A DNA stretch of 34,424 nucleotides from IMG/VR virus record IMGVR_UViG_3300045988_092413, positions 1-34,424 of that record; one strand, written 5' to 3'. Of this stretch, positions 4,589 to 34,424 are shown piece by piece (within the stretch, counting starts at the first letter, position 1; each line of letters begins with the position of its first letter). This DNA comes from a virus. The notes beneath the pieces were generated by a model. The model was given only the letters and a program-made list of their open reading frames with translations, ran no database searches and had not been told where the DNA came from. A program made the translations under genes and the position numbers.

Positions 4589-5560
4589 TCAGCCCCCAAT
4601 CGCGTCGAGGATCGCCTGCGACATCGTCCGCAGCGTGACCGCGTGGCTCATCAGCATCTGGCGCGTCCCGTCATCCATCTGCACCGCGCCCAGCGCCGCG
4701 ACGCTCCCGCCAGCCGAGGCGATCATCGCACCGATGGCAGCGTTGATCGTGCTGATCGGATCAACCGCCTGACCGCCGCCGCGCATCGTGCTGACGTTGG
4801 CTCGCATATCTGCCGCGTCCAGCTCGTCCTCAAGCTGCTCGATGCGCCGCTCATAGGCCGCCCGCTCACTGTCCGCCAGCGTCGTGTTGTTTTCGGCGGC
4901 TTGTAGCTGGTCTTTCAGCTTTTCGACCTCCGCAGTAAGCGCTTTCACCTTGGTGTCGTCTCCTGCATCTAACTTGTCCTGACTTTTCAGTGCACCAATT
5001 TCAGCCGTCTTTTGCAGGATAGTCTTCTGCGCCCAGGCTCTGTATCTATCATGGTCTTTTTGCAGTTTGTCTCTCGATTTGTCCTTTTCCCGGGCTTCGC
5101 CGCGCAGGCGCTCAACCTCCTTAGTCTTTTCCGCGGCCTTGTCGATCAGCGCGTTGCGCTCCTTTTTAACCTCGGCCAGCTCGCGGCGGTACTGCGCGAC
5201 AGCCTCCGTTACCTCGCGGCTCGTCGCGTTCTCCGCGTCGATGCGCGCGGCGAAGGCTTCGCGTTCTTCCGCTGGGATGCGGATCAGCGCGTTGATCTTG
5301 CTGTCGTCCAGCTCCAGCAGCGGGCTGTCCTGCGCCAGCTCTCGCGCCTGCCGCATCGCAAGCTGTACGCCGCGCTCGTTCAGCCCGCTGTGCGTGGTCG
5401 CCCACGCCGTCCACTCGCCATGGGGCACAACGCCCTCATCCTTGGCCTGGTTGAGCAGGTTGCCGATCTGCCACATAGACAGAGCGATGTTTTTTTTGCA
5501 TTGCTCAAGATTCGTTTCGATGTACGCCCGACGGACGTTCACACTGATCTCTGTGCTCAT
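4589..5560 (-). CDS. DUF3102-like protein with long coiled-coil
   Basis: N-terminal IGNLLNQAKDEGVVPHGEWTAWA matches the PHGEW..W signature of DUF3102. The central region is rich in E/K/R heptads. RBS AAAGGAGAA. Confidence 0.65.
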   Translation of the reverse strand: MSTEISVNVRRAYIETNLEQCKKNIALSMWQIGNLLNQAKDEGVVPHGEWTAWATTHSGLNERGVQLAMRQARELAQDSPLLELDDSKINALIRIPAEEREAFAARIDAENATSREVTEAVAQYRRELAEVKKERNALIDKAAEKTKEVERLRGEAREKDKSRDKLQKDHDRYRAWAQKTILQKTAEIGALKSQDKLDAGDDTKVKALTAEVEKLKDQLQAAENNTTLADSERAAYERRIEQLEDELDAADMRANVSTMRGGGQAVDPISTINAAIGAMIASAGGSVAALGAVQMDDGTRQMLMSHAVTLRTMSQAILDAIGG

Positions 5561-5573
5561 TTTTTTCTCCTTT

Positions 5574-6410
5574 TTACAATGTTTTCAATCTTGCCTGTTT
5601 GCGGAAGCAAGCGGGAATTCGTTCCGCGTCGCAGACCACCGTATTGTCGCAGACCACCGTATTGTCGCAGACCACCGTATTGCCGCAGACCACCGTATTG
5701 CCGCAGACCACCGTATTGCCGCAGACCACAGCATTGCCGCAGACCACAGCATTGCCGCAGACCCGCGTATTGCCGCAGACCACCGTATTGCCGCAGCCCC
5801 ACGCATCGCCGTAGGCCCACGCACTGTTGTAGACCACCGCATCGCCGTAGACCTGCGCACTGTTGTAGACCACCGCATCGCCGTAGACCTGCGCATTGCC
5901 GTAGACCCACGCATTGCTGGAAACCAACGCATTGCCGTAGACCCGCGCATTGCCGTAGACCTGCGCCTTGTCGTAGACCCGCGCCTTGCCGTAGACCTGC
6001 GCATTGCCGTAGACCTGCGCCTTGTCGTAGACCCGCGCATTGCCGTAGACCTGCGCATTGCCGTAGACCTGCGCCTTGTCGTAGACCCGCGCCTTGCCGT
6101 AGACCTGCGCATTGCCGCAAACCCGCGCATTGCCGTAAACCCGCGCATTGTCGGAAACCCGCGCATTGTCGGAAACCTGCGCATTGTCGGAAACCTGCGC
6201 ATCGCCGTAGACCCACGCATCGCCGTAGACCCACGCATTGCTGGAAACCCACGCATTGCCGTCATGGCTGAGATTTTTGTCTTTTTCAATCCATCCGCCA
6301 AGGTCGCCTTTTTTGACGCAGTGCGTCGGGATGTCTACCAGTGCCCGGATGCGGCGGAGCGTATACCCACACCACACTTTGTTTTCCCCTGTAAACTCAA
6401 ATTTTTTCAC
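5574..6410 (-). CDS. Hexapeptide-repeat (left-handed beta-helix type) protein, 35 uninterrupted repeats
   Basis: GTG start 6410 with RBS GGAGGGA. 51-aa N-terminal domain, then NAxVYG-type hexapeptides x35, ending in a CGNTVV/CDNTVV run. The repeats keep all other frames open, which explains four overlapping track ORFs. Confidence 0.8.
   Translation of the reverse strand: MKKFEFTGENKVWCGYTLRRIRALVDIPTHCVKKGDLGGWIEKDKNLSHDGNAWVSSNAWVYGDAWVYGDAQVSDNAQVSDNARVSDNARVYGNARVCGNAQVYGKARVYDKAQVYGNAQVYGNARVYDKAQVYGNAQVYGKARVYDKAQVYGNARVYGNALVSSNAWVYGNAQVYGDAVVYNSAQVYGDAVVYNSAWAYGDAWGCGNTVVCGNTRVCGNAVVCGNAVVCGNTVVCGNTVVCGNTVVCDNTVVCDNTVVCDAERIPACFRKQARLKTL
5628..6257. repeat. 18-bp coding tandem repeat (x35) with 54-bp higher-order units
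   Basis: Examples: gaccaccgtattgccgca x3, gaccacagcattgccgca x2, and a recurring gcattgccgtagacctgcgccttgtcgtagacccgc block. Confidence 0.9.
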
Positions 6411-9437: not shown

Positions 9438-9644
9438 TCACAGCTCCACATGCAGGCACTCGCGCGCCGCGGCTTTCACGGCCTCGCGCCCCTCGTCGGT
9501 CGTCTGCATCGTCAGCATCACGTCCGCGATGGCGTAGTCCATCGTCGCGTCAGGGATTTCCCGCATCGTCGCGCTCAACAGCTTTCCGCCGCCGTTGCCG
9601 TGCTTATCAGCTCGGCTGTACCGTGCCGCCGTCATCACCTGCAT
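9438..9644 (-). CDS. Hypothetical small protein
   Basis: ATG 9644 preceded by GGGAGGTG. 68 aa. No recognisable domain. Confidence 0.45.
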   Translation of the reverse strand: MQVMTAARYSRADKHGNGGGKLLSATMREIPDATMDYAIADVMLTMQTTDEGREAVKAAARECLHVEL

Positions 9645-9870
9645 CCGTCTCACCTCCCTTTGCCCTCATCGGGATCACGTCGAGCCGCAGCCGGAAGTCG
9701 GTGATCCGATCCGCCTTGTATATCCGCTGCGCGCCGCAAGCCTGACAACCGACGACGGCCTGCCATCCCGGCCGCACCGTCCCGGTCTCCGTCCTCGTCT
9801 GGATCGCGTCATAAGCCACCGACTCCTGACCGCCGCACTTTGCGCAACGGCCGCACCTGATCTCGACCAC
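9607..9870 (-). CDS. Hypothetical 4-Cys zinc-ribbon protein
   Basis: GTG 9870 preceded by AGAGGAGCGGAG. CGRCAKCG ... CQACG. Overlaps the preceding gene by about 60 nt. Confidence 0.45.
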   Translation of the reverse strand: MVEIRCGRCAKCGGQESVAYDAIQTRTETGTVRPGWQAVVGCQACGAQRIYKADRITDFRLRLDVIPMRAKGGETDAGDDGGTVQPS

Positions 9871-10177
9871 GTTCTCCGCTCCTCTCGTTGACCGCGCGCA
9901 CAAATTCGTCACGCGATCCGCCCGTCCTCATATACACCCAGCCGCAGCTTGCGTTGTTGCACTCCGCCCTGCGGATCACAGCCGGGCCGAATCGGCTCGC
10001 CATCAGCACCCGCTCGCGGGCGATCACCGTGCCGCCGCAGTGCGGGCAGGGCTTAAAGCGCGCCGCGCGTATGCCGCGCTCCCGCCATTGCTCCGGCTCG
10101 TAATCCATCCGGATAGATGGCTGGTCATGCCGCCACGTCGCAAGCCCGTCTCCGTCAGTGTACGGCACCGTTGTCAT
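9809..10177 (-). CDS. Lar-family-like (restriction alleviation type) zinc-ribbon protein
   Basis: KPCPHCGG...AECNNASCGW...EFVRAVNER resembles the Lar family pattern (CPFCGG ... C..C ... aWN.R). Start placed at ATG 10177. The track N-terminus overlaps the better-supported gene 10155..10409. Confidence 0.5.
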   Translation of the reverse strand: MTTVPYTDGDGLATWRHDQPSIRMDYEPEQWRERGIRAARFKPCPHCGGTVIARERVLMASRFGPAVIRRAECNNASCGWVYMRTGGSRDEFVRAVNERSGERGRDQVRPLRKVRRSGVGGL

Positions 10178-10409
10178 CTCCCTCAAAGGGCATTTCGTTC
10201 TGCGCATGCCGCGCGATGATCGCCTCGACAAGCGCCCGCTCAAGCTGATCGGCAATGTCGTCCTGTCCCTCGTAGTCCCCGGCCATGGTCTGGATCGCGT
10301 CCACACACAGGCAGGCCAGCTCGTCGAGCAGCTCGTCCGTGGTGCCGGAAAATCTGCCGCTGATGCGGATGCTTTCATCTGCGTCGCGCGTCACATCTGC
10401 CCGTATCAT
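10155..10409 (-). CDS. Hypothetical acidic small protein
   Basis: 84 aa. ATGA overlap with the cro-like stop. No recognisable domain. Confidence 0.5.
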   Translation of the reverse strand: MIRADVTRDADESIRISGRFSGTTDELLDELACLCVDAIQTMAGDYEGQDDIADQLERALVEAIIARHAQNEMPFEGDDNGAVH

Positions 10410-10684
10410 TCAAAGCCCTCCAGATTGTCTTCGTCGGTCGTCGGTTCTTCCGTCTGGAGCGCCGCATCTTCCTGCGGCGCGTCCATCTCGGGGAAAAGCG
10501 CGTCGATGCTCACGCCCAAGGCGCGCGCCATCTTCGGGAGCTTCTCAAGAGTCTTTCCTCGCGTTCCATTTGCCAGTCTTGCAATCGTCACAAGTGTAAG
10601 CCCAGACTTTTCTGCAAGCTCATTCATGGTCATGTTTTTTTCGCGCAAGGTCTTTTTCAGCCTATCCGCAAATCCGTTTTCCAT
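10406..10684 (-). CDS. Cro-like XRE-family HTH regulator
   Basis: MENGFADRLKKTLREKNMTMNELAEKSGLTLVTIARLANG is an HTH_3 type motif. ATG 10684 lies 6 nt after GAGGTG. Divergent from the cI-like gene. Confidence 0.8.
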   Translation of the reverse strand: MENGFADRLKKTLREKNMTMNELAEKSGLTLVTIARLANGTRGKTLEKLPKMARALGVSIDALFPEMDAPQEDAALQTEEPTTDEDNLEGFE

Positions 10685-10701: not shown

Positions 10702-10852
10702 TGCCATTTTGTCACTTACTCGCGTTACAGCTCTATTATATTTGCCGTTTTGGTACATGTCAAGTACCTTAAAAAAATTTTTTGCCAATTTGGCACACCA
10801 AAAGGATTTTACCGTTTCGGCAAGTATTATATTATAAAGTACCATTTCGGCA
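10702..10852. promoter_or_regulatory. Five 13-bp dyad operators, consensus TRCCRTTTYGGYA, in the cro/cI intergenic region
   Basis: 10702 tgccattttgtca; 10743 tgccgttttggta; 10783 tgccaatttggca; 10810 taccgtttcggca; 10840 taccatttcggca. Confidence 0.75.
10735..10763 (-). promoter_or_regulatory. Consensus sigma-A/sigma-70 promoter for the early (cro-like) operon
   Basis: The minus strand reads TTGACA-17 nt-TATAAT (-35 at 10758-10763, -10 at 10735-10740). Operator O2 lies exactly in the spacer. Confidence 0.75.
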
Positions 10853-11783: not shown

Positions 11784-12022
11784 TACCGTTTCGGCATGTA
11801 TTTTTAACAAAGTGTTATTCCATTTCGGTAAATTCTACCGTTTCGGCAATCAATTTTAACAGTTTGTTTTGCCGTTTTGGTCGATTTATACCATTATGGC
11901 AAGCATTTTTAACAGTCTGTTATACCATTTCGGTATACTTTTTACCATTTTGTTAATGCGTTTAATGATTTGTTATACCGTTTCGGCAAGCATTTTTTAA
12001 CATTTTGTTTACCAAAACGGCA
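11784..12022. repeat. Array of nine operator-type 13-bp palindromes organised in tandem units of about 52 bp
   Basis: Sites at 11784, 11818, 11836, 11870, 11889, 11923, 11943, 11976 and 12010, with the same consensus as the cro/cI operators. Each unit also carries a CATTTTTAACA-like box. Confidence 0.85.
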
Positions 12023-12438: not shown

Positions 12439-12463
12439 GAAAACCGAATGCGAATTCGGTTTT
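12438..12463 (+). repeat. 26-nt hairpin element, copy B (immediately upstream of the serine recombinase RBS)
   Basis: agaaaaccgaatgcgaattcggtttt, followed directly by GAGGAGG and the TTG start at 12480. Confidence 0.95.
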
Positions 12464-12479
12464 GAGGAGGTGCTTTGAC

Positions 12480-14096
12480 TTGAAAACCGCTGTCACCTAT
12501 GCCCGCTTTTCCTCCGCGCGCCAGCATGAGACGTCTATCGAGGCGCAGCGCGACGCGATGGCGAAGTGGTGCGCCCAGCGCAGCGTCCGGATCGTGCAGG
12601 AGTACGCAGATCGCGCCGCATCCGGCACCAAGACCGAAGGCCGCGATGACTTTCTCCAGATGTTGGCCGATCTCAAGCAGCGGCGCGTGGACTATGTGCT
12701 CGTCCACAAGTATGATCGCTTCGCCCGCAACGAAAACGACCAGTATTTTTATATGGCCATGATCGAGCAGCGCGGTGCAAAGCTCGTCGCTGTCGCGCAG
12801 GAGTTCGGCGACGGACCGGAGGCGCGCTTTATGGTCGGCGTCATCACGGCCTATAATGCCTTTTATTCGGCGAACCTGTCCGCGGAGTCGAAAAAAGGCA
12901 AAAACATCATCAAGCAGCATGGCAAGCATACCGGCGGCCCCTATCCGATCGGGTATGACCCGGACGGGAAGGGCAACTATATCGTCAACGAGGTTGAGGC
13001 GTATTTTGTCCGCGAGCTGTATAACGCCGTCATCACGCACAGGCGGCTGGATGACGTCGTCGCCGAGATGCGCGATGCCGGTCTGCGCGGCCGCTATGGC
13101 GGCGAGCTGAAAACCGCCAACCTCGCGCGGATCGTCCGCAACCCCGTCTATATGGGCGTGTACCAGCGCACGCTGTCGGATGGCACGCTCGTCCGCCTCG
13201 AAAACCACCACACAGCCATTGTCGATCAAAAAACCTATGAGGAGGCTAACCGCATTATGGACGCACGCGCAAACGCCGGTCGAAACGACCGCAAAATCTA
13301 CCCGTTGAGCGGTATCGCTTACTGCGCCTGCTGTGGCGCAAAGCTGCTCGCCCAGACCACCCGCAAAGACGCCAACCACGAATACACGTCGTATTACTGC
13401 TCTAAGTGCCACGATCTCCACCGCATCCCAGCCAAGGAGCTGGATGGCGCTGCTGTTGACTATCTCAACGCGCTTTTCGCGCCGGAGCGCCGCGCCGAGC
13501 TGGCAAAGGCCGTCGAGGACTACTCCAAGCGCCTGATCTCCTCCGCGGCCTCGCGCCAGCCGTCAGCGTCGCGCGAAATCAAAAAGCTCCAGCGCGAGAT
13601 TGACTCGCTGGCCGCCAACCTTGCCACGGGCGTTTTGTCGCCGGACATGCTGACCATGATCGACCAGCAGATCACCACCCGCCGCGAGCGCATCAAGATT
13701 TTGCAAGAGACCAGCGCCACGCCTGCGCCCGTAACCGCCGCAGATATCGACTCTTTTTTCGCCGACGCCGCCACGCTCTCGCTTGGCATGGACCCGCGCT
13801 ATCTGCGCCAGGTCATGCGCAAGTACATCAAGCGCGTCACCGTCCACACAACGGAGATCGAGATCGTCTCCACCTTTGACGACTGGATCGGTGAGAAACT
13901 CCGCTCCTGCCGAGAAAGCAGCGACGACGGAGGTGCGGACAGACAAAGATTAAGAATCGCATCAAACCCGTGCATGTTCGATGTGATTCTTACACTTTCA
14001 TTTGTCCACCGCGTCCCTCTCCCGGAGCGATACCGTCCATTTCACAAGGAGTTGTACAATTTGCACAGAAACAAAATAAGGCACAGAAAAAAATAA
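12480..14096 (+). CDS. Large serine recombinase (phage integrase)
   Basis: N-terminal AVTYARFSSARQ (catalytic Ser context), resolvase-like domain, recombinase domain, zinc ribbon CACCG...CSKCH, C-terminal coiled-coil. TTG 12480 lies 9 nt after GAGGAGG. The start codon is uncertain. Confidence 0.88.
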   Translation: MKTAVTYARFSSARQHETSIEAQRDAMAKWCAQRSVRIVQEYADRAASGTKTEGRDDFLQMLADLKQRRVDYVLVHKYDRFARNENDQYFYMAMIEQRGAKLVAVAQEFGDGPEARFMVGVITAYNAFYSANLSAESKKGKNIIKQHGKHTGGPYPIGYDPDGKGNYIVNEVEAYFVRELYNAVITHRRLDDVVAEMRDAGLRGRYGGELKTANLARIVRNPVYMGVYQRTLSDGTLVRLENHHTAIVDQKTYEEANRIMDARANAGRNDRKIYPLSGIAYCACCGAKLLAQTTRKDANHEYTSYYCSKCHDLHRIPAKELDGAAVDYLNALFAPERRAELAKAVEDYSKRLISSAASRQPSASREIKKLQREIDSLAANLATGVLSPDMLTMIDQQITTRRERIKILQETSATPAPVTAADIDSFFADAATLSLGMDPRYLRQVMRKYIKRVTVHTTEIEIVSTFDDWIGEKLRSCRESSDDGGADRQRLRIASNPCMFDVILTLSFVHRVPLPERYRPFHKELYNLHRNKIRHRKK

Positions 14097-14276
14097 AAAA
14101 TCCGACATTTCAAGGAAAATTTCTCTGCCGTGTAGCGCTTCGGTGCTGATTCAGGCCGTTATTTAATGCAAATATGGGGGAGGGTACCCCTCCCATCGAA
14201 TCTTTTGTGCAGTTTTGCCAATGCACTCGTGGGAAACCCTGTCGCTGCCGCTAGGCGGCAAACCCGCATAAAAAAG

Positions 14277-14300
14277 CAGCCGCACAAAACCGTGCGGCTG
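14277..14300 (-). terminator. Intrinsic terminator closing the minus-strand accessory region
   Basis: The minus strand reads CAGCCGCAC-GGTTTT-GTGCGGCTG followed by CTTTTTTAT. Confidence 0.75.
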
Positions 14301-14314
14301 TTGAATCCTTGCCC

Positions 14315-14758
14315 TCACTTGGCAATGGCACGCATATATCGCGCGACCTTGTGCGGCCTGGCGTCCTTGTCGTCGATAAACGCCCGCGCCATCTTGCCGT
14401 AAAAATCCGGCGTGTTGTTCCCCGCGGCCGAAATGACTGGTCCATAATCCGACCAGATCATATTGAGAGCGACAAAAAATGCAATCATCTGATCGTCTGG
14501 CACACCGAGCTTATGCCCCAGCTCCGTCGCCTCGGCGTATGTCCAGCGCCCGCCATGCGGTCTGGATGTGTCGGCGTTGTCCATGCGATCCACCCATGCC
14601 TGCGCCTGCTCCATCGTGATCACCTCGCCGCCCTCGCACTCCTTATCGAGCGCGTCCAATGCGATGGACATCAGCGCAAAATCGCGGACGTTGCCAAGCG
14701 TCTGCGGACACTGCATGATCTGCTCCCTGGCCTCTCTGATAGCCTCAGCTGTCCACAT
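14315..14758 (-). CDS. Hypothetical protein
   Basis: 147 aa. RBS AGGAGGGA 5 nt before the ATG. No recognised domain. Confidence 0.55.
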   Translation of the reverse strand: MWTAEAIREAREQIMQCPQTLGNVRDFALMSIALDALDKECEGGEVITMEQAQAWVDRMDNADTSRPHGGRWTYAEATELGHKLGVPDDQMIAFFVALNMIWSDYGPVISAAGNNTPDFYGKMARAFIDDKDARPHKVARYMRAIAK

Positions 14759-14769
14759 ATTTATCCCTC

Positions 14770-15111
14770 CTATGCCTTAGCCTTGTCGATCTGCTCGATC
14801 AGTCTGTCCACGTCCTCAGGCGTGAAGCTCATGCTGTCCTGCCCGATCTGGATAGTCATGCGTCCGCCTGCCTTGGTTATCTGCTCCTTGAGCTGCACCG
14901 CCACCGCGCCGACGTCGATGTTGCCATCCTCCGACATAATGCCCAGCGCTTGGAGCGTGGGCAAATACTTGCCGACGATCCGCTCCGGGTTTGCCGCCGC
15001 TATACCGACGACCGCGCCGTAAATGATCCCCTTAACGCCGCTAATAGATGGGCGCACTACCACGTCATAGTAGTGCGCCACACCCGCGGCGACCTGTTTA
15101 AGCGTCGCCAT
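14770..15111 (-). CDS. Hypothetical protein with one hydrophobic Gly/Ala-rich segment
   Basis: ATG 15111 after GGGAGG. GIIYGAVVGIAAA. The track ORF start at 15165 overlaps the upstream gene. Confidence 0.5.
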   Translation of the reverse strand: MATLKQVAAGVAHYYDVVVRPSISGVKGIIYGAVVGIAAANPERIVGKYLPTLQALGIMSEDGNIDVGAVAVQLKEQITKAGGRMTIQIGQDSMSFTPEDVDRLIEQIDKAKA

Positions 15112-15116
15112 TGTTT

Positions 15117-15671
15117 TTAGCCTCCCGCGTTCGCGCCAGCCGCAGCCGCTGTCGGCGCAGTCCAAGAGTTATAGCGCTGCATAGGCGGCGGGCAAATGTT
15201 TCCGTCCGGGATGACCATCTTAGTCATGCCCATGAGCGCCGCAACCTGGCTTTGCAGACAGCCGATCATGCCGTTGTTGCTGGCATTGTAGACCGCCTGC
15301 TGCGCGATCTGCTCCTCGATACCGCGCAGTCTGCTGTTGATGTCCTTGTACATGTCCAGCATCTTGCTGTCGGTATAAGTGTTCGCGTCGCGGAGCTTAA
15401 TCTCGCTCTCAAGCTCCGCGATCCGCGCGGACTGGGTAGCCTCGTAGCGGTTGATCGTGTGATCCTCGCTACAAGTGGCCGTTGTGCGCGCAGCAGCGCT
15501 GGCCATCATCATCGCCGCAGCCATGTCGGCGACAGTGTCCCGGCGATTGCCGCCGAGAAGACCGTTAAGCACGTTGCCGCCACCCAGCAGCCCCAGCGTA
15601 GTGCCTGCGATGCCAAAACCCAAACCGGTGTTGGCCACGCCTTTGGAAGCATACTCTTTATATTCCATCAT
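15117..15671 (-). CDS. Hypothetical protein: glycine-zipper-like N-terminus plus coiled-coil
   Basis: GVANTGLGFGIAGTTLGLLGGGNVLNGLLGG, then RIAELESEIKLRD...RLRGIEEQIAQQ. RBS GGAGGGAG. Confidence 0.55.
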   Translation of the reverse strand: MMEYKEYASKGVANTGLGFGIAGTTLGLLGGGNVLNGLLGGNRRDTVADMAAAMMMASAAARTTATCSEDHTINRYEATQSARIAELESEIKLRDANTYTDSKMLDMYKDINSRLRGIEEQIAQQAVYNASNNGMIGCLQSQVAALMGMTKMVIPDGNICPPPMQRYNSWTAPTAAAAGANAGG

Positions 15672-15708
15672 GCTCCCTCCTTTCTGCCCTCATTTTTGCA
15701 TAAAAAAA

Positions 15709-15734
15709 GGACGTGCACCTATCAGATGCACGTC
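15709..15734 (-). terminator. Intrinsic terminator after 15755..16063
   Basis: The minus strand reads GACGTGCA-loop-TGCACGTC followed by CTTTTTTTAT. Confidence 0.7.
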
Positions 15735-15754
15735 TTGTTTATATCAGGTTTTTG

Positions 15755-16063
15755 TCAGTCCCACATGTGCTCACTTACTGCCGCATCCCACTCGGCCTCC
15801 ATGTCACTGATGGCCTTTTTCCAGTCCTCGCCGTCAAGGATGCGCTCGACGGCTTTTCTGCCTGCGCTGGCCTTGTGGTAATTGGCCGCGCGGGAGTAGC
15901 TTTCCGCGCGGAGCATCTCGGCCGGGCGTGCTTTGAGCAGCTTGACGGCCTTTTCACTCGGCGATACGGCCATCTTGTCGCCCATGAGGGCAAAGCTCAG
16001 GCCGGAGTGTTCGAGGATTTCACTCGCGGCGGTGGAAAGCTGCTGCTTGTACTTTTCTTTCAT
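15755..16063 (-). CDS. Hypothetical small protein, paralog of 16214..16591
   Basis: C-terminal GRKAVERILDGEDWKKAISDMEAEW aligns with GQKAVDNILDGADWALEVEEMKKQW in the paralog. RBS AGGAGGAAG. Confidence 0.6.
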   Translation of the reverse strand: MKEKYKQQLSTAASEILEHSGLSFALMGDKMAVSPSEKAVKLLKARPAEMLRAESYSRAANYHKASAGRKAVERILDGEDWKKAISDMEAEWDAAVSEHMWD

Positions 16064-16113
16064 GGTTTCTTCCTCCTGTCGATCGGGTTGTTTTCTTTGT
16101 TCCTTACAAGTAT

Positions 16114-16142
16114 ATTATAAAACAGTTAGCCTTATTTGTCAA
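16114..16142 (-). promoter_or_regulatory. Promoter cassette P1 (TTGACA-17-TATAAT)
   Basis: The plus strand has tgtcaa at 16137-16142 and attata at 16114-16119. Homologous to P2 and P3. Confidence 0.75.
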
Positions 16143-16182
16143 TCATATCATAAAACATTTTTAAAAAATATGAACAAATAAA

Positions 16183-16212
16183 AGAGGCGTGTATCCTCTG
16201 ACACACGCCTCT
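16183..16212 (-). terminator. Intrinsic terminator after 16214..16591
   Basis: 10-bp perfect stem agaggcgtgt/acacgcctct, with T-runs on both sides. Confidence 0.75.
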
Positions 16213-16213
16213 T

Positions 16214-16591
16214 TTATTTGCGATGATTGATAACATCATTAATATGTTTGTTCCACTGTTTCTTCATCTCCTCGACTTCCAGCGCCCAATCAGCGCCGTC
16301 AAGAATATTATCAACAGCTTTTTGACCCAACGTGGCTTTTGCCGCGTTGGCCGAATCTCTGTACATCTCGGCATAAAGGAGCGCGACAGCCATCGGGTAT
16401 TGAGCTTCCAGATCATCCAGATCGCTTTCCGGCTCATCTGGATACTTGCCGAAGCCTTTCAGCGCGAGCATGTAAGCCTCGTCAAAGGCTGCCTGTTCTG
16501 CCTTCGCTGCTTCAAGCTTTTTGATTCCGGGAATCGAGTTGCGGAAGTTCTGGCGACGCTCAACAATTTTGTTTTCTTCGTTCTTTTTCAT
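16214..16591 (-). CDS. Hypothetical small protein, paralog of 15755..16063; visibly AT-richer than the genome
   Basis: 125 aa. RBS AAGGAGGA. Shares the C-terminal domain with 15755..16063. Confidence 0.6.
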   Translation of the reverse strand: MKKNEENKIVERRQNFRNSIPGIKKLEAAKAEQAAFDEAYMLALKGFGKYPDEPESDLDDLEAQYPMAVALLYAEMYRDSANAAKATLGQKAVDNILDGADWALEVEEMKKQWNKHINDVINHRK

Positions 16592-16630
16592 TTTTTTGTT
16601 TCCTCCTTAGGTTTTTCCTTTTACGCACTT

Positions 16631-16659
16631 ATTATAAGGCATTTTGCTTTATTTGTCAA
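16631..16659 (-). promoter_or_regulatory. Promoter cassette P2 (TTGACA-17-TATAAT)
   Basis: The plus strand has tgtcaa at 16654-16659 and attata at 16631-16636. Confidence 0.8.
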
Positions 16660-16701
16660 TAGCATTTTAAAGCATTTTTAAACTTTTTTGAAACAAAAAA
16701 T

Positions 16702-16720
16702 CCTCTGCTTATTGCAGAGG
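16702..16720 (-). terminator. Intrinsic terminator ending the P3 operon
   Basis: The minus strand reads CCTCTGC-AATAA-GCAGAGG followed by ATTTTTTGTTT. Confidence 0.7.
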
Positions 16721-16727
16721 AAAATGC

Positions 16728-17465
16728 TTATTGATCCGGATCGTCCGGCTTGCGCCTGTGTGCGGGCGTGATGGGCAGAGACAGCAGCCCCCAGCCCTTA
16801 TAGTGATACAAAGATCCCTTGCACGATGGGGCACCTCGCATGCTTGTCGCGATCTTTTTTAAACCGCTTGCTATACGTTTTGCGGCGATATCTCGCTCCT
16901 CTTCCGGAGTTTGCGGCTCAAAGAGCCGGTAATTATTCCGCGCCCAGTCGAGCAGATTGGTGCACGGCACTTGATTGCCGCTCGGATCGACCAGCACCCA
17001 GATTTTGCTTTCTCGGTTTTGCGGTCCACGTTGCCCCTCCGGGATTGCAAGCGCCGCTTGCACGCCGCGCGGTTGCAGCTCGTCCATCTGCGCCTTAACA
17101 GCAGCGTCTTCCGCGCGTCGCCTTTTCGCGTCCTCTCCCCACTTGCGTGGTTTGTCATGTGCCGACTTCGCCGCGCGGAGACGACGGCAAGCGTCCGAGC
17201 ACGTCACGCGATTGTCTGACCGATACGAGTCAAACAGTCTGCCGCAGATCACGCATGCTTGTGTGATCTTGCCCACCGCCTTACATCCGCACGACGTCGT
17301 CTTACCAGAGATCAGATTGCTCGCATAGTACGACTTAACGCTGCCACATCGCAGGCACTCCGCATCGCATCGGGTCTTAGACGACGCTTCCGGCCGCCTC
17401 CAAATCCGCAAAACCTTGAGATCGCCGAACACGTCGCCGACCTGCATGTTGAGTTTGCGAGGCAT
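16728..17465 (-). CDS. Hypothetical Cys-rich (zinc-finger-like) protein with an uncharacterised C-terminal domain
   Basis: ATG 17465 lies 8 nt after GGGAGG. CDAECLRCGS...SCGCK...CVICG...CSDAC. The C-terminus ends ...YHYKGWGLL. Confidence 0.55.
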   Translation of the reverse strand: MPRKLNMQVGDVFGDLKVLRIWRRPEASSKTRCDAECLRCGSVKSYYASNLISGKTTSCGCKAVGKITQACVICGRLFDSYRSDNRVTCSDACRRLRAAKSAHDKPRKWGEDAKRRRAEDAAVKAQMDELQPRGVQAALAIPEGQRGPQNRESKIWVLVDPSGNQVPCTNLLDWARNNYRLFEPQTPEEERDIAAKRIASGLKKIATSMRGAPSCKGSLYHYKGWGLLSLPITPAHRRKPDDPDQ

Positions 17466-17467
17466 GC

Positions 17468-17950
17468 TCAACGCCTCCCAAACTCGCCGCCGACAAGGAT
17501 GCGCGGAAGCCCTTTATACATAATGGCTTCTTCGCCGCGGCCATCAACCCAGCGCTGGCCCCTGATCTCATCAATGGTCAACGGCTGCTCGCCCTGCCAG
17601 TCCGCGAGGGTAAACTGCACACCCTCAGACTGGATCACGGCGATGATCCCGACATCCGGATGATCGACGAGATAAAATATCCCATATTCGTCGATCACTG
17701 TCTCGGACACGATCGGGAGCGCCAGCGTGCATCCAGTCTCCCAATCGTAGACGGCCAGCTTCGGCGCATCGCCGCGCAGATAGGCCGCGGTCACACCCAG
17801 CGCATCCGCCAGAGCAGGGAGCAGCTTTGGGCCGAGGTTTCGCTGCCCGCTCTCGTAGCTGTTGAGCGTCTGCGCCGACACGCCCAATTTATCGGCCAGC
17901 TCTTTCTGGCCCAACCCGCGCAGGATACGCAGATTTTTGATTCCCATCAT
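17468..17950 (-). CDS. XRE-family HTH protein fused to an uncharacterised C-terminal domain
   Basis: LRGLGQKELADKLGVSAQTLNSYESGQRN is an HTH_3 motif. About 95 aa follow with no S24 peptidase motif. ATGA overlap with the upstream gene. Confidence 0.65.
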   Translation of the reverse strand: MMGIKNLRILRGLGQKELADKLGVSAQTLNSYESGQRNLGPKLLPALADALGVTAAYLRGDAPKLAVYDWETGCTLALPIVSETVIDEYGIFYLVDHPDVGIIAVIQSEGVQFTLADWQGEQPLTIDEIRGQRWVDGRGEEAIMYKGLPRILVGGEFGRR

Positions 17951-18174
17951 TTCGCCCGCACCTCCTCGATCGCAGGCTCAAGGTCATGGCTGCCAAAGGC
18001 GTCGCACAACACGACGTCCTTGTTGCCGCAACCGCGACCGCAAGGGCAGGTGACATAATGGGCAATAACCTGCCCGTCATGCACCAGATCGACAGGGACG
18101 GTTGTTCCGTCTCCGCAGTAGCCGCGGCCTTTCGGTTCACCCCAAATGAGCCTATAACCATCTTTCAATTTCAT
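17947..18174 (-). CDS. Hypothetical small Cys-rich protein
   Basis: 75 aa. RBS AAGGAGGAAAAAC. CPCGRGCG motif. Confidence 0.55.
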   Translation of the reverse strand: MKLKDGYRLIWGEPKGRGYCGDGTTVPVDLVHDGQVIAHYVTCPCGRGCGNKDVVLCDAFGSHDLEPAIEEVRAK

Positions 18175-18189
18175 GTTTTTCCTCCTTAC

Positions 18190-18411
18190 TTATAACCTTT
18201 CGAGCGTCTTAATCAGAGACGCAGACGGCTTAAATCCGCAATCTAGGACGGCTTTATAGAGCGCCCTGATCTCATTAGGTTTTCCAACGCTAAATGAGAT
18301 CGTTCCTCTATTCGTAACCCTCACGAAAGAGGACGAGGCCATGAAACCGAGCTCCTTACAGATTTCCTCATAAGACATCTGCTTTTTTTCTCCATTTTGG
18401 ATCACGTTCAT
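18190..18411 (-). CDS. Hypothetical small protein (possible HTH), AT-richer than its surroundings
   Basis: ATG 18411 after AAGGAGGAATAATA. MSYEEICKELGF... 73 aa. Confidence 0.5.
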   Translation of the reverse strand: MNVIQNGEKKQMSYEEICKELGFMASSSFVRVTNRGTISFSVGKPNEIRALYKAVLDCGFKPSASLIKTLERL

Positions 18412-18427
18412 TATTATTCCTCCTTTT

Positions 18428-18721
18428 TTACGCGGCGACAAGCGCGCCGGTCATGTTGTCGATGTAGCCGATCTCAAGGTCGCGCTTGCGGTTCCACGCG
18501 TTGGTGTAGATGCGCGCGGAAACGTAGGTGCGATTGTGGCCGCCCTTAACCCAGTCGTTCGCAACGACCTTGAAGTTCCAGCCGGACTCCTTGCCCTCCT
18601 TCTCGGCAGCGAGAAGGGCCTTAGCCAACGCCCAGGCACCTTTAAGTGCCACGCTCAGGCTCAGGCCAAAGCTCTTGACCATGATCCACGCGCGCTTCAT
18701 GATAACCTTCTTGTTGTACAT
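18428..18721 (-). CDS. Hypothetical small protein, first gene of the P3 operon
   Basis: ATG 18721 after GAGGAGGAAAAAGCA. 97 aa. Confidence 0.55.
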   Translation of the reverse strand: MYNKKVIMKRAWIMVKSFGLSLSVALKGAWALAKALLAAEKEGKESGWNFKVVANDWVKGGHNRTYVSARIYTNAWNRKRDLEIGYIDNMTGALVAA

Positions 18722-18775
18722 TGCTTTTTCCTCCTCGCCCTTTAGGCTTTTTGTTTTCTTGTTCCTTATGCGCCT

Positions 18776-18804
18776 ACTATAAGGCATTTTGTTTTATTTG
18801 TCAA
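18776..18804 (-). promoter_or_regulatory. Promoter cassette P3 (TTGACA-17-TATAGT)
   Basis: The plus strand has tgtcaa at 18799-18804 and actata at 18776-18781. About 60 bp are nearly identical to P2. Confidence 0.8.
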
Positions 18805-18850
18805 TAGCATTTTAAAACATTTTTAAACTTTTTTTTGAAACAAAAAAAAT

Positions 18851-18870
18851 CCCCGGCCATCAGGCCGGGG
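18851..18870 (-). terminator. Strong intrinsic terminator after the lysis cassette
   Basis: The minus strand reads CCCCGGCC-TGAT-GGCCGGGG followed by ATTTTTTTT. The stop codon of 18860..19087 lies in the loop. Confidence 0.8.
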
Positions 18871-19087
18871 TGTTATCATCCGTATATATAGATGCAGACA
18901 TTCGTCTTTTAATTTCGCGAATGCTGCGGCTGACGGTCGCCGGAGACATGCCCAGCGTCATGCTGATCTGCACGATGCTGTAACCACGCCAGAGCAAATC
19001 AAAGACCTGCCCCAGCCGAACGTGAACGTCAAAGCCGCAGCGGCGGGCGATTTCTTCTTTCGTGCGCCTGTCAAAGTCAAGGCGCAC
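18860..19087 (-). CDS. Small sigma-region-4/LuxR-like HTH protein
   Basis: LLWRGYSIVQISMTLGMSPATVSRSIREIKRRM. GTG start 9 nt after GGGAGG. Confidence 0.55.
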   Translation of the reverse strand: MRLDFDRRTKEEIARRCGFDVHVRLGQVFDLLWRGYSIVQISMTLGMSPATVSRSIREIKRRMSASIYTDDNTPA

Positions 19088-19102
19088 GGTAAACCGCCTC
19101 CC

Positions 19103-19357
19103 TTATCCCTCCTTGGGCTTGTCGTAGGTCATCGCCTGCGCGCTGTCGCTGATGCCCTTGGTCGTCGGGTCGGCAATCACGCCGATCATGCCCAGCACCG
19201 TCAGAATCGCGTTGACAGCGGTCAAAAGCGCGTCCTGCTGCACCGTCGGCGTTACGCCAAACAGCGCCAGCAGGTTATAGACAAACGCGATCACCAGCGC
19301 CAGAAACGACGCGAGGAACGTCTTATTGTGAAAGCGTACCCACCAGTTAATCCTCAT
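19103..19357 (-). CDS. Holin (phi LC3-like family)
   Basis: MRINWWVRFHNKTFLASFLALVIAFVYN...ADPTTKGISDS matches the conserved N-terminus and DPTTKG motif of this holin family. 2 TM helices. Adjacent to the endolysin. Confidence 0.8.
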   Translation of the reverse strand: MRINWWVRFHNKTFLASFLALVIAFVYNLLALFGVTPTVQQDALLTAVNAILTVLGMIGVIADPTTKGISDSAQAMTYDKPKEG

Positions 19358-19569
19358 ACCTTGATATCTCCTTTTAAATCCCGAATGTCATGTTGAAGCT
19401 CTTTAACCTCGCCCTCAAGCTTGTACGTCCTCTCGACGATACTGTTGTGCTTGTTGACCTTATCCTCAAGCTGCTGGATGCGATATTGCATCAGCTTGTT
19501 GGATGCAAGCACGCCTGCAAGGCTGCCAATCGCGCTTGCAACCGCCGGAAGCCATGTCATCAAGTCCAC
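19354..19569 (-). CDS. Small membrane / coiled-coil lysis-accessory protein (XhlA-like)
   Basis: N-terminal TM helix WLPAVASAIGSLAGVLA followed by a coiled-coil. Lies between the endolysin and the holin. Confidence 0.5.
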   Translation of the reverse strand: MDLMTWLPAVASAIGSLAGVLASNKLMQYRIQQLEDKVNKHNSIVERTYKLEGEVKELQHDIRDLKGDIKV

Positions 19570-21243: not shown

Positions 21244-22725
21244 TCACACCCCCTTAACGCCGTAAATTCTGACCGGGATACACGCACGTTGATCGTCGCT
21301 TGTGCTGTCTGTCAATCGTATAGCCTTCCCAAAATGATTTGTGTCTAGAGTGAAATCTCGGAATTGGCCACCAGCGCCATGTTCAGTATCTGTGAGGAAA
21401 TAAAATCTTAACCTATCCCCTTTTTTTGCCACGGCAGAAAACGAACGCACGTTTGAGTTGACATATGCAAGAAAATAAATCATGCAATAATTGTAGGCTT
21501 TCCAGTCGAATGTTACGGTCTGTTCGTCGAACGAGCTGTTAGGTGAGGCGTTTTCCCACAATACTTCCGTCGAATACTTTTTCTCAATTTCGTCCTTTAG
21601 CTGACTAAGCTCAGCTCCCGTCGCTTTCGCATCTGCGGCTTTTCTCGCCATTGTCAGCGTCGCGTCCGTGCCGGAGAGCGCCCCAACGTCCGCCGCTGTC
21701 GGCATCCAGTCGTCAGCACGCGCCCCAACGTCCGCTGCGGTCAACGTCACTTTCCCCGCCTCGTCCGGCGCTTTACCGTTGATCGTCAGGCTGCCCAGAC
21801 TCCCCGTGTCGCCGCGCGGGATCGTCAGCTCGATCACCGGCGCTTCCGCCGTGCCGGTCTGCTTGACGCTCGCCGCCGTTCCCGGCTCGCCGGTCTTGAC
21901 TTGCACTGTGATCTGAGGGGTTGCGCCGGGGTCGCCTTTATCGCCCTTGGGCAGGCCGAGCACGATATTGTAGTGCCCGTCCACCTCAGTCAGCTTTGCC
22001 GTCGGTGCAGCGCCCGCCGCAAGGCCAGTCGCTGTGATGGTCATGTCGTCGATCTTGGTGGCAGCTTCCGTGGCAGTAGTAGCCGCGGCTTTCGCCGCGG
22101 AAGCGCCATCTGTCGCCTGCCCAGCCGCGTTTCTCGCGTCGCTCGCCGCGCCATTAGCGGCCTCGATAGCCGACGCGACTTTCTTCAGCGCATCGCCGAC
22201 CGATGCAGCAGCACCCTCTGCCTTTTCCGCGGCCGCATCGCATCGCCCGATAGACGCCATAATCTCGTCGAGATTGGGGATGCGCTTACCCTCATCCAGG
22301 ATGTCGTCCCCAGTCGGATCGATCGCCATGACGGCCATGCGCGCGACCGCAACACTCGCTCCGTCCCTGGTCACGCGGATCGTGCAACCGACCGGGCCGG
22401 GGATATTGGCCGCATCCCTCGGCAAAACTGCTTTTATCTCACCGCCGCTCTCTACCGTCGCCTCGCTATATGTAGTGCCGCCGCTCTCTACCGTCGCCTC
22501 GCTATATGTAGTGCCGCCGCTCCCGTCCTCAGACAAGGCGCGCGCACAGTAGAGCGATGCGGTCGCTCCGGTCAAGTCTACCGGCACGCCGTTTTTTTTG
22601 ATCGTCACGATCCAGACCAGCGCCTGCACATCGCCCTTGACGATCGGCTGATCCCGCACGAGGACGGGGTTGCTCTGCGTCAGCTCGATCGTCTGGCGTT
22701 GCGTAAATCCCTCCATTTTTGCCAT
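21244..22725 (-). CDS. Tail fibre / receptor-binding protein with BppU-like N-terminal domain
   Basis: N-terminal Ig-like baseplate-upper-protein pattern, Ala-rich coiled-coil, short collagen-like PKGDKGDPG, and a distinct AT-richer C-terminal domain. Confidence 0.75.
   Translation of the reverse strand: MAKMEGFTQRQTIELTQSNPVLVRDQPIVKGDVQALVWIVTIKKNGVPVDLTGATASLYCARALSEDGSGGTTYSEATVESGGTTYSEATVESGGEIKAVLPRDAANIPGPVGCTIRVTRDGASVAVARMAVMAIDPTGDDILDEGKRIPNLDEIMASIGRCDAAAEKAEGAAASVGDALKKVASAIEAANGAASDARNAAGQATDGASAAKAAATTATEAATKIDDMTITATGLAAGAAPTAKLTEVDGHYNIVLGLPKGDKGDPGATPQITVQVKTGEPGTAASVKQTGTAEAPVIELTIPRGDTGSLGSLTINGKAPDEAGKVTLTAADVGARADDWMPTAADVGALSGTDATLTMARKAADAKATGAELSQLKDEIEKKYSTEVLWENASPNSSFDEQTVTFDWKAYNYCMIYFLAYVNSNVRSFSAVAKKGDRLRFYFLTDTEHGAGGQFRDFTLDTNHFGKAIRLTDSTSDDQRACIPVRIYGVKGV
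22443..22522. repeat. 36-bp in-frame tandem duplication (2.2 copies) inside the fibre N-terminal domain
   Basis: cgccgctctctaccgtcgcctcgctatatgtagtgc occurs twice in a row, encoding GGTTYSEATVES twice. Confidence 0.9.
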
Positions 22726-34199: not shown

Positions 34200-34424
34200 T
34201 TATAGGTCAAAAATGATCGGTCGGCTGTCTCGATAGCTGTCGCCGGGGATGATCCTATCCTCCATCCGCAGGATGTAAGCGTTCATCCCCGCCATAAAGC
34301 CGTCAATTTTTTTTTGCGCGTTTTGATGCGCGCCCGCGCGCTTGGTCGGGTACCAGTTTTCCTTTTCCTGCGCAAAAAAATCCGCCTTTAGGCGGACATT
34401 GCGAAGGAACCAGGCGTACATCTC
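34200..34424 (-). CDS. terL: Terminase large subunit, 3' end (C-terminal about 74 aa; same gene as 1..1619 across the circular junction)
   Basis: ORF 34200..34421 begins with the peptide encoded at 1-119 on the minus strand. Contains KIDGFMA, typical of the terminase nuclease C-terminus. Combined gene is about 577 aa. Confidence 0.9.
   Translation of the reverse strand, partial: EMYAWFLRNVRLKADFFAQEKENWYPTKRAGAHQNAQKKIDGFMAGMNAYILRMEDRIIPGDSYRDSRPIIFDL
34306..34424. repeat. Second copy of the 119-bp terminal direct repeat
   Basis: Identical to 1-119. Confidence 0.95.

Follow-up and report, generated by a model that had tools for sequence, protein, structure and literature searches.

The locus studied here raises a simple question: are three consensus promoters, each of which stands directly behind a terminator, separate features of a phage genome or copies of a single portable element, and what would such an element do for the small genes that it precedes? 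The promoters, which we call P1, P2 and P3, lie between 16.06 and 18.87 kb of a viral DNA of 34,424 nucleotides (IMG/VR record IMGVR_UViG_3300045988_092413), and we refer to this whole stretch of DNA, at its full length, as the window. A first-pass annotation, made from the letters of the window alone, had read the locus as a set of insulated accessory modules, probably acquired or duplicated by recombination at the promoter repeat, and had likened it to anti-CRISPR (acr-aca) loci or to prophage-expressed genes for defence and exclusion.

We propose that P1-P3 would be copies of one portable cassette, made up of a terminator, A-tracts resembling an UP element, a sigma-A promoter, an unstructured purine-rich leader and a strong Shine-Dalgarno (SD) sequence, and that this cassette would divide the stretch from the lysis genes to attP/int into transcription units that work autonomously. 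The cassettes would double as expression signals and as anchors for homologous recombination, by which cargo is swapped, much as in the promoter(early) stem-loop elements (PeSLs) of other phages. The operon logic, in turn, would be of the acr-aca type, with variable small first genes, a constant regulator of the XRE type (g4), and a gene family (g7) that is associated with operators elsewhere. Taken jointly, we assign the architectural reading and this operon logic a probability of roughly 0.6.

Anatomy of the cassettes

If at most one mismatch is allowed, the motif TTGACA-17-TATAAT occurs four times in the window, compared with 0.02 occurrences expected from shuffled sequences. Three of the four are P1, P2 and P3, which were correctly recognized as consensus promoters at the outset, and the fourth, P0, belongs to the lysis-lysogeny switch (Table 1). 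Each of P1-P3 has a terminator (T1, T2 and T3, respectively) within 50 bp upstream, again in agreement with the first-pass annotation: the distance from hairpin to -35 hexamer is 47 nt for T3-P3, 42 nt for T2-P2 and 32 nt for T1-P1. Each unit also ends in a terminator of its own, as had been stated, the P3, P2 and P1 units closing at T2, at T1 and at a further hairpin behind g1. All five terminators of the region fold at z≤-4.9 relative to shuffled sequence. A hairpin does lie at 16183-16212, where T1 was originally placed, but this is only the inner stem of a structure that extends from 16221 to 16174. Because an A-run and a T-run flank its stem, T1 is bidirectional in form; no counterpart of it is found in the nine relatives compared.

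The three cassettes resemble one another well beyond their hexamers. P2 and P3 are about 94% identical across about 72 nt, from the T-run to the -10 hexamer (longest exact run, 24 nt), so that the near-identical repeat reported for them stands. P1 is 72-75% identical to P2 and P3, and it shares with P3 the leader GTAAGGAACAA(A)GAAAACAA. Upstream, A-tracts recur about 11 nt apart, at roughly -66, -55, -44 and -21, and the repeats of GCATTTT fall into this pattern. Such repeats had been counted three times per cassette, which is true of P2, but P3 has two and P1 has none. We infer that they form part of a UP-like, curved upstream region rather than operators. An Rfam scan of positions 14000-19500 yields nothing above threshold.

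In the mechanism that we envisage, host RNA polymerase carrying sigma-A would fire P1-P3 without the aid of phage factors, both upon DNA entry and, unless they are repressed, in the lysogen. The terminator upstream would bar late transcription, and those downstream would stop antisense transcripts from entering the integrase gene. Each unit would be shielded from the late/lysis transcript on its upstream side and, on its downstream side, from both the next unit and the convergent integrase. T3 is the predicted end of the late/lysis transcript, whose last gene, g8, is found in exactly the same sequence on 207 contigs. The TGA stop codon of g8 sits in the loop of the T3 hairpin, so a terminating ribosome would cover that hairpin, and some translation-dependent read-through past T3 into the P3 unit is possible.

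Relatives in the same lineage

The relatives comprise 62 viral contigs fetched by means of the lysin, plus ten more fetched by means of g8. About 50 related uncultured gut phages share the cassette, and they carry it at two fixed sites: directly after g8, whose stop codon again falls in the hairpin loop, and before a protein of 182-183 aa. The 67 cassette promoters of these relatives (53 of them unique) follow one order, namely a GC hairpin with its T-run, A-tracts over about 30 nt, TTGACA, a conserved AT-rich spacer of 17 nt, TATAAT, the leader ATAAGGAACAAGGAAAACAAC and GGAGGAA. The g8 gene in front of the first site is 93-99% identical in about 30 relatives, even where their lysins are just 64-85% identical.

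Clustering of the genes gives a consensus layout in which the first cassette is followed by variable cargo, g4, a partner gene, the second cassette, the 182-aa protein and further blocks. The partner that follows g4 may be g3, a 93-aa protein or a zinc-ribbon protein. For the first position behind the first cassette we find at least six unrelated alternatives: g7, a g6-like gene, and genes whose products start with MKKLRMKD.., MKKYYLVGED.., MKYIISYERND.. or MKNWKVVKK... The g7 gene is missing from about 40% of the layouts in the lineage, and unrelated genes stand in its place. The g4 gene is present in 41 of 41 layouts and is the sole gene found in the cassette region of every relative. As one would expect from the initial reading, then, cargo differs among relatives and the breakpoints are at the promoter repeats. 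Insertions, deletions and replacements alike have their ends there, and the cassettes accordingly look, from these alignments, like points of exchange.

The relatives also hold cargo of other kinds. In one of them (L063, positions 9521-10603) a 360-aa protein with an LPD25 domain stands behind the first cassette. In another (L019, positions 14050-17229), and in its equivalents elsewhere, the second cassette is followed by a conserved block that is absent from the window; the block includes a papain-like 131-aa protein, a 271-aa membrane protein rich in Gly and Cys, and a 140-aa protein.

Origin of the three copies

Whereas relatives have two cassettes, the window has three, and alignments with particular relatives indicate which of the three is the newcomer. 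The relative L024 is collinear with the window through lysin, g8, terminator and P3; it lacks g7 and g6 and resumes at g5, and its homology with the window stops precisely at 16630, where the -10 hexamer of P2 has its edge. The P2 and P1 promoters of the window both align to the single second promoter of L002. In L069 a g2-like gene is found directly before the 183-aa gene, and the segment 16221-16080, which contains hairpin and promoter, is absent. From the T-run to the -10 hexamer, moreover, P2 of the window is a copy of P3 of the window and not of the orthologous second promoter in L024. The P2-g2 unit as a whole is absent from L024, L002, L019 and others.

Because of the alignments with L024, L002 and L069, we take the P2-g2-hairpin unit to be a recent insertion in the lineage of the window, bounded by duplicated promoter sequence; the P2 copy would thus have arisen by promoter duplication together with insertion of g2 and its hairpin. 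The earlier suggestion that the modules were acquired or duplicated at the promoter repeat therefore fits this unit, which a promoter duplicate flanks, but it does not extend to P3 and P1, whose positions are lineage-wide and not those of sporadic acquisitions. A separate observation on L069 is that it carries three tandem paralogues of the 182-183-aa protein family.

Operators of the switch and of the cassettes

The lysis-lysogeny switch of the window has a recognizable operator, TACC-N5-GGYA, which occurs ten times against 0.8 expected and is confined to positions 10743-10852 and 11784-12022. One operator of this CI/Cro type, TACCAAAACGGCA, is held in the spacer of P0, the cro promoter. Two further copies are found just upstream of P0, and the remaining seven are in an array of about 240 bp, which consists of four repeats of about 52 nt and precedes gene 11715-11293 of the minus strand, whose product is a putative membrane protein of 140 aa. 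A scan of the window finds no TACC-N5-GGYA in P1-P3, and these promoters are therefore outside the CI/Cro regulon. A common operator for the cassettes and the 11.8-12.0 kb array is accordingly rejected (0 of 10 operator sites are in P1-P3). The box CATTTTTAA, which had been noted in that array as well, does occur there, but in one exact copy (at 11904) and not in several.

Among relatives, the recognition helix of g4 appears to vary together with the promoter spacers. For example, the variant SAQTLNSYE pairs with 'aataaaacaaaatgc' spacers, the variant SAQQLNNYE pairs with 'agtaaattaaaatgatg' spacers, and SAQNLNNYE pairs with a third spacer type. Since only about three lineages are involved, and exceptions occur, this pairing is a hint only.

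Operons of the g7 family in unrelated phages

Public data contain 113 close relatives of the g7 gene, which heads the P3 operon, and the family comprises 247 representative clusters. No homologue is found in cultured phages (GenBank) or in plasmids, and ten longer members of the family have no fused known domain. In unrelated phages, homologues (51-68% identical) are the first genes of small operons that run against the neighbouring phage genes, on the other strand, and that are situated either between the replication and terminase genes or at the end of a prophage, beside host genes. In L077 and L079, for example, the g7 operon lies at the prophage end, antisense to the late genes.

In each class of distant g7 operon examined, a promoter with 0-2 mismatches to TTGACA-16/17-TATAAT lies 58-85 nt before the ATG. 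In 9 of the 18 promoter classes, the inverted repeat in the spacer exceeds in length those of 95% of spacer shuffles; another four classes are borderline. These spacer repeats are specific to lineages (e.g. ATACGCTAATATTAGCGTAT, ATAGGCTAAaaTTAGCCTAT, CTACGGAaTCCGTAG and ATATCATAtttTATGATAT), and a second copy of the inverted repeat is often found upstream of the -35 hexamer. Downstream of g7 comes a variable second gene, followed by a protein with a C-terminal HTH_3 domain or by a homologue of g3. In the unrelated prophage L077, the gene in third place of the g7 operon is such a homologue, and g3 of the window is 38% identical to it (E 2e-31). At the one locus scanned for it, L126, a terminator closes the operon. 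In a different phage group (L073-L076, at about 6900-8565, and L122-L124) the g7 operon is antisense between replication/ParAB genes and terminase, with the palindrome ACGCTAATATTAGC(GT) occurring twice, once in the promoter spacer and once upstream; the palindrome of the L122/L073 operon is ACGCTAATATTAGCGT, and the HTH protein of this operon has 144 aa.

The AlphaFold2 model of g7 (pLDDT 93.5) consists of a helical hairpin and a four-stranded antiparallel sheet. When this model is compared with the PDB by Foldseek, the sole notable neighbour is AcrIIA22 (7jta), at probability 0.99 and E 0.14 over 47 columns; a comparison with BFVD returns uncharacterised proteins only. At the level of sequence, no similarity between g7 and AcrIIA22 is found.

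Genes of the region

The coordinates of the cassettes and of the other features of the window are collected in Table 1.

Table 1. Features of the window, listed in the direction of the minus strand.
Feature	Position	Strand	Description
Portal, protease, capsid and tail genes	33037 down to 21244	minus	
Lysin	20349-19585	minus	NlpC/P60 and SH3 domains (Pfam/PHROGs); followed by an XhlA-like gene
Holin	19357-19103	minus	Phage_holin_1; after the XhlA-like gene
Region under study	19087-14277	minus	g8, cassettes and d1-d3; ~4.5 kb
g8	18860..19087	minus	75 aa; stand-alone helix-turn-helix (HTH) protein of GerE/LuxR type (sigma-70 region-4-like); directly upstream of P3
Terminator T3	18870-18851	minus	8-bp all-GC stem and T8; -19.9 kcal/mol, z -5.1
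Cassette P3	18722..18850	minus	GC 32.6%; phased A-tracts (UP-like), promoter, purine-rich leader ATAAGGAACAAGAAAACAA, SD GAGGAGGA
Promoter P3	18804-18776	minus	TTGACA 18804-18799, TATAGT 18781-18776; 11/12, AT-rich 17-nt spacer
g7	18428..18721	minus	97 aa; first gene of the P3 operon; family without annotation
g6	18190..18411	minus	73 aa; 44.1% GC; variably present in relatives
g5	17947..18174	minus	75-aa Cys-rich protein, variably present; stop overlaps g4 start; no family match
g4	17468..17950	minus	160 aa; N-terminal XRE-type HTH and beta-rich C-terminal domain
g3	16728..17465	minus	245 aa; N-terminal zinc ribbons; C-terminal domain like the DNA-binding part of homing endonucleases
Terminator T2	16721-16701	minus	End of P3 operon; -16 kcal/mol, z -4.9
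Cassette P2	16592..16700	minus	~94% copy of P3 from T-run to -10
Promoter P2	16659-16631	minus	TTGACA 16659-16654, TATAAT 16636-16631; 12/12, 17-nt spacing
g2	16214..16591	minus	125 aa; 47.6% GC
Terminator T1	16221-16174	minus	Perfect 22-bp stem; -34.4 kcal/mol, z -10; overlaps g2 stop
Cassette P1	16064..16173	minus	Leader GTAAGGAACAAAGAAAACAAC; orthologous to the second cassette of relatives
Promoter P1	16142-16114	minus	TTGACA 16142-16137, TATAAT 16119-16114; 12/12, 17-nt spacing
g1	15755..16063	minus	102 aa; retains N-terminal ~49 and C-terminal ~53 residues of the 182-183-aa protein
End terminator of P1 unit	15734-15710	minus	-16.9 kcal/mol, z -5.2
d1-d3	15671-14315	minus	Gly-rich membrane/coiled-coil protein, 131-aa protein, DUF7841 protein
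Final terminator after d1-d3	14300-14277	minus	Faces the 3' end of the integrase gene
Large serine recombinase	12462..14096	plus	Convergent with the cassettes; Pfam Resolvase, Recombinase, Zn_ribbon_recom
Promoter P0	10763-10735	minus	Fourth perfect consensus match; drives the cro-like gene

Two genes of the region are assigned to HTH families. The first is g8 (Pfam GerE 2.4e-5, HTH_38 7.8e-6), which starts with GTG behind the SD sequence GGGAGG, and which the first-pass annotation had overlooked. The second is g4, for which an HTH had been proposed and for which Pfam HTH_3 gives 1.3e-15. Its match to the 434 repressor in the PDB (2.5e-7) covers the HTH part alone, and it resembles the CI protein of the window in the HTH only. 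A phmmer search of g4 against all PDB chains (E≤1) returns generic XRE HTH proteins, none of which is named Aca or AcrIIA1; the AlphaFold2 model of g4 (pLDDT 56.7) is too poor for a structure search. We regard g4 as the candidate Aca-like regulator.

The other proposed HTH protein, g6, did not bear this description out, as no HTH family matches it in Pfam, PHROGs or NCBIfam, nor does any other family in these collections. One member of its cluster bears the depositor's label 'lactose operon repressor/DNA complex', which is backed by no family search. Matches of g6 to designed pentatricopeptide-repeat proteins in the PDB look spurious, because no single stretch of them is significant.

For g3, families of HNH endonucleases in PHROGs match the N-terminal part only (9.6e-6), while residues 127-226 match PDB 9kja_A, a 111-aa chain deposited as 'HNH endonuclease' (E 4.3e-6); we find no paper in the literature that mentions 9kja, and no nuclease domain is detected in g3. 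For g1, g2, g5, g6 and g7, there is no meaningful family match in Pfam, PHROGs, PADLOC, NCBIfam or the PDB sequences.

The products of g1 and g2 had been described as paralogues that share a C-terminal domain, and they are indeed 41% identical over 49 C-terminal residues (E 3e-12). Their family is found in this phage lineage only. Relative to the 182-183-aa protein of the lineage, g1 is an in-frame deletion of about 76 internal codons, with a 12-nt overlap at the junction (15913-15924), and g2 is a divergent paralogue of its middle and C-terminal parts (about 50% identity). As for composition, several of the genes were initially described as AT-richer than the genome. This holds for g2 and g6, compared with 58.7% GC in the window, but not for the remaining six genes, which have 55-60% GC (57-60% in g1, g3, g4, g5 and g7).

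Behind the P1 unit, the d1-d3 block is 96% identical in L027, which itself lacks any cassette, so that d1-d3 is a separately mobile block.

Layout of the phage genome

The ends of the window are identical over 119 nt (1-119 = 34306-34424, an exact direct repeat), and because of this identity the window represents a circularly closed element of about 34.3 kb. The GC content of the window is 58.7%, and nearly all genes are on the minus strand. Beyond the integrase lie the AT-rich operator array, a CI-like gene (plus strand) and the cro-like gene (minus strand). The order of genes is that usual for a temperate siphophage of Firmicutes; the inferred position of attP is about 14100-14280, and the cassettes fill the slot for accessory genes that follows the lysis genes and precedes attP/int.

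The window has no close cultured relative, as judged by blastn with 15700-19100 and by tblastn with g7, g4 and the capsid protein against 50,697 GenBank phages. In the tblastn searches the capsid protein is 27% identical to Paenibacillus phages, and g4 is matched in its HTH part only. Scans with g8 and with g4 confirm no relative in the GTDB representative genomes; one g8 variant was deposited from a metagenome-assembled genome of Christensenellales.

Two repeats were seen elsewhere in the window. The gene 5574-6410 (minus strand, early region) contains at least 29 tandem 18-nt units, at 5540-6343, which encode hexapeptide repeats (NAQVYG/NARVYD...) of a YdcK-type beta-solenoid. A perfect 36-nt tandem duplication, 22442-22513, is found within the BppU_N-domain tail gene 21244-22725.

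Alternative explanations

It is important to ask which features of the locus would also follow from other explanations. The principal rival holds that the cassettes are units of lysogenic conversion, that is, that they are constitutive in the lysogen, because they have no operator and no CI site, and that their cargo serves the host through superinfection exclusion, defence or altered physiology; g4, g6 and g8 would then be effectors or regulators of host or competitor genes, and not autoregulators. The promoters of the window, which are free of any CI/Cro site or inverted repeat, favour this explanation. So does the location, since it is between lysis genes and attP that temperate phages of Firmicutes classically carry their genes for lysogenic conversion, and so do the g7 operons at the prophage ends of L077 and L079, which run antisense to late genes, and the terminators that shield the integrase from antisense transcription. 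However, the defence models of PADLOC are matched by a generic HTH alone; the cargo is tiny (73-125 aa) and mostly DNA-binding-like, unlike most defence enzymes; and a constant regulator, variable small genes and the operators of distant g7 operons suit a burst of expression followed by repression better. We consider lysogenic conversion a serious alternative, though one that is a good deal less probable than the reading that we propose. A system of the toxin-antitoxin or abortive-infection kind, in which g7 is a HigB/ParE-like toxin placed first and the HTH protein is an antitoxin and autorepressor, would account for the order of g7, variable gene and XRE HTH behind inverted-repeat promoters in many lineages; in higBA and mqsRA, likewise, the toxin gene comes first and the promoters contain palindromes. 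The HTH of g4 weakly matches the antitoxin models PezA, HigA and MqsA, and the order of elements in the g7 model, two helices and four strands, recalls the RelE/ParE superfamily, a resemblance that no database match accompanies. Yet neither RelE, ParE, HigB nor YoeB is among the best 50 PDB neighbours of g7 in Foldseek, no toxin family matches in Pfam or PADLOC, and g4 stays constant while g7 is swapped for unrelated genes, which is not how a cognate pair would behave. We thus regard this explanation as improbable.

The remaining two explanations seem to us more improbable still. One is that the region is a second immunity or regulatory region, comparable to immI of P22, in which strong promoters and several DNA-binding proteins (g8, g6, g4 and g3) would steer an antirepressor-like function, or else time lysis and lysogeny. 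The region does encode two HTH proteins with family support (g8 and g4) and the zinc-ribbon protein g3, together with g6, which is repressor-like by a depositor's label alone; g4 has a two-domain, repressor-like layout, and both g8 and g4 are conserved in the lineage. But a complete CI/Cro switch with its own set of operators is present elsewhere, and none of these is shared; the likeness of g4 to CI stops at the HTH; and variable cargo, as well as mobile g7 operons in unrelated phages, speak against a core role. The least probable explanation, which we think very unlikely indeed, is that these are ordinary late genes at the tail end of an operon, expressed by read-through, and that the promoter matches arise incidentally from AT-rich intergenic DNA. 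In its favour, the genes share the strand of the late operon, and d1-d3, which have no promoter, must rely on read-through. Against this explanation, the excess of promoter matches over the expected 0.02 is large, hexamers and 17-nt spacing are identical in the 53 unique cassettes of relatives, no cassette is without a strong terminator in front of it, and in other phages the g7 operon is antisense to late genes.

Several results also weigh against the portable cassette with acr-aca-like operons that we prefer. Neither P1-P3 nor the type-A promoters of relatives contain an inverted-repeat operator: the arms are 4-5 nt at best (shuffle fractions 0.12-0.86), and the dyads seen in P1-P3 are short, AT-only or centred on the -10 hexamer, no better than those in shuffles. 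Because the promoters of the window lack a significant inverted repeat, direct support for autorepression by g4 is lacking, and the pairing of g4 helices with spacers may reflect nothing more than linkage. Among the cargo proteins, none has a match in the known Acr, Aca, defence or toxin families. The resemblance of g7 to AcrIIA22 is a lead only, a weak match of a simple beta-sheet. Two of the three cassettes are at positions conserved throughout the lineage, and so belong more to a core regulatory architecture than to sporadic morons. Finally, d1-d3 have no recognizable promoter behind the terminator at 15734-15710, which implies that terminators are read through to some extent.

Significance

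If the operon logic is of the acr-aca type, then the cargo most likely acts on functions of the host or of competitors, soon after entry or in lysogeny. Within the reading that we favour, a role of the cargo in anti-defence or host takeover has perhaps one chance in three. The former comparison with defence or exclusion genes is not supported by searches of the cargo, none of whose proteins has a match in a known family of Acr, defence or exclusion proteins; PADLOC's defence models find a generic HTH only.

If the proposed reading is right, temperate phages of uncultured gut Firmicutes use one compact element both as an insulated, high-level expression signal and as a recombination anchor, a dual behaviour for which lytic T4-like phages, with their PeSLs, have so far been the main documented case. 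The cassette would in addition provide a handle for searches, namely a terminator, TTGACA-17-TATAAT and the leader AAGGAACAAG..GGAGGAA after a GerE-like gene; the g7 gene would provide another. Such handles could harvest candidate genes for anti-defence or host takeover from the gut viromes of unculturable hosts, where cargo of this kind now has no annotation.

A further suggestion, which we offer tentatively and expect to be wrong rather than right, is that the g7 family may mark an undescribed and widespread class of self-contained, autoregulated phage operon that encodes a new anti-defence function in phages of gut Firmicutes, and that the lineage of the window has absorbed this operon into PeSL-like cassettes that shuffle anti-defence cargo beside attP. 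Such an operon may start with a consensus promoter whose operator is specific to the lineage, continue with g7, a variable gene and an HTH protein (at times accompanied by a zinc-ribbon protein of the g3 type), and end in a terminator; its function might possibly be exerted on DNA, as that of AcrIIA22 is. The kinds of component, that is, morons, PeSL-type cassettes and acr-aca-like operons, are already known. To our knowledge, their combination in a temperate phage that has lysis genes of the Firmicute type, with a PeSL-like cassette, a conserved leader and the g7 operon family, has not been described.

Comparison with known systems

AcrIIA22, an anti-Cas9 nickase, is encoded at the hypervariable prophage ends of gut Clostridia, CAG-217 (Forsberg et al. 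2021, PMC8545432). The region studied here is similar in that it also concerns prophages of human-gut Clostridia and hypervariable small genes near the junction of prophage and host, but it differs in that the structural match of g7 to 7jta is weak (E 0.14). Membership in the AcrIIA22/CAG-217 system is rejected, as neither the window nor the 145 loci contain an AcrIIA22 homologue. None of six signature peptides of g8, g4, g7, g1 and g3 is found in the supplementary sequences of PMC8545432 as stored.

In acr-aca loci, according to published surveys, the promoters have consensus -35 and -10 hexamers, and the core promoter invariably contains an inverted repeat, to which a second is often added (PMC9410906). 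The window resembles these loci in its near-consensus promoter, behind which stand at least one small variable gene and, after that, a conserved HTH regulator; compared with AcrIIA1 (149 aa) of the Listeria acrIIA1 locus (PMC6765145), g4 has 160 aa and likewise consists of an XRE HTH and a second domain. The inverted repeat in the core promoter, often with a second copy upstream, which is typical of Aca sites, is a feature of the distant g7 operons and not of the window, whose promoters have no detectable one. Furthermore, no cargo gene is a known acr, and g7 keeps the first place in different lineages, while in acr-aca loci it is the acr genes that vary. The acr-aca likeness drawn by the first-pass annotation thus survives in the conserved g4 behind variable genes and in the operators of distant g7 operons, but not in an inverted repeat within the promoters of the window or in the identity of its cargo.

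The P2-g2 unit, with 47.6% GC compared with 58.7%, comes closest to a moron. Morons of lambdoid phages were reportedly described by Juhala et al. in 2000 and by Hendrix et al. in 2000. Here too a gene with its own promoter and terminator stands between genes that are adjacent in relatives, and it would be independently transcribable. Unlike morons, P3 and P1 have lineage-wide positions and multi-gene operons of ordinary composition, and what is repeated is the promoter cassette itself.

A further parallel is with the PeSLs of T4-like phages, in which strong sigma-70 promoters and terminator stem-loops mediate modular shuffling (Arbiol et al. 2010, PMC2839356; Comeau et al. 2014, PMC4122927). 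In both cases a small composite of a strong sigma-70-type promoter and an efficient terminator stem-loop is repeated in a hyperplastic region of small non-essential genes (here in three copies between 16.06 and 18.87 kb, and in two in relatives), and in both cases the junctions of insertions, deletions and replacements between relatives fall at the motif. The differences are that the window is a temperate phage of about 34 kb, with a serine integrase, CI/Cro and lysis genes of the Firmicute type, rather than a lytic T4-like myovirus of Gram-negative hosts, and that its cassettes number two to three, are restricted to one region, include a conserved leader and have no sequence relationship to PeSLs. 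The cassettes of the window are thus an analogue of PeSLs rather than members of that class.

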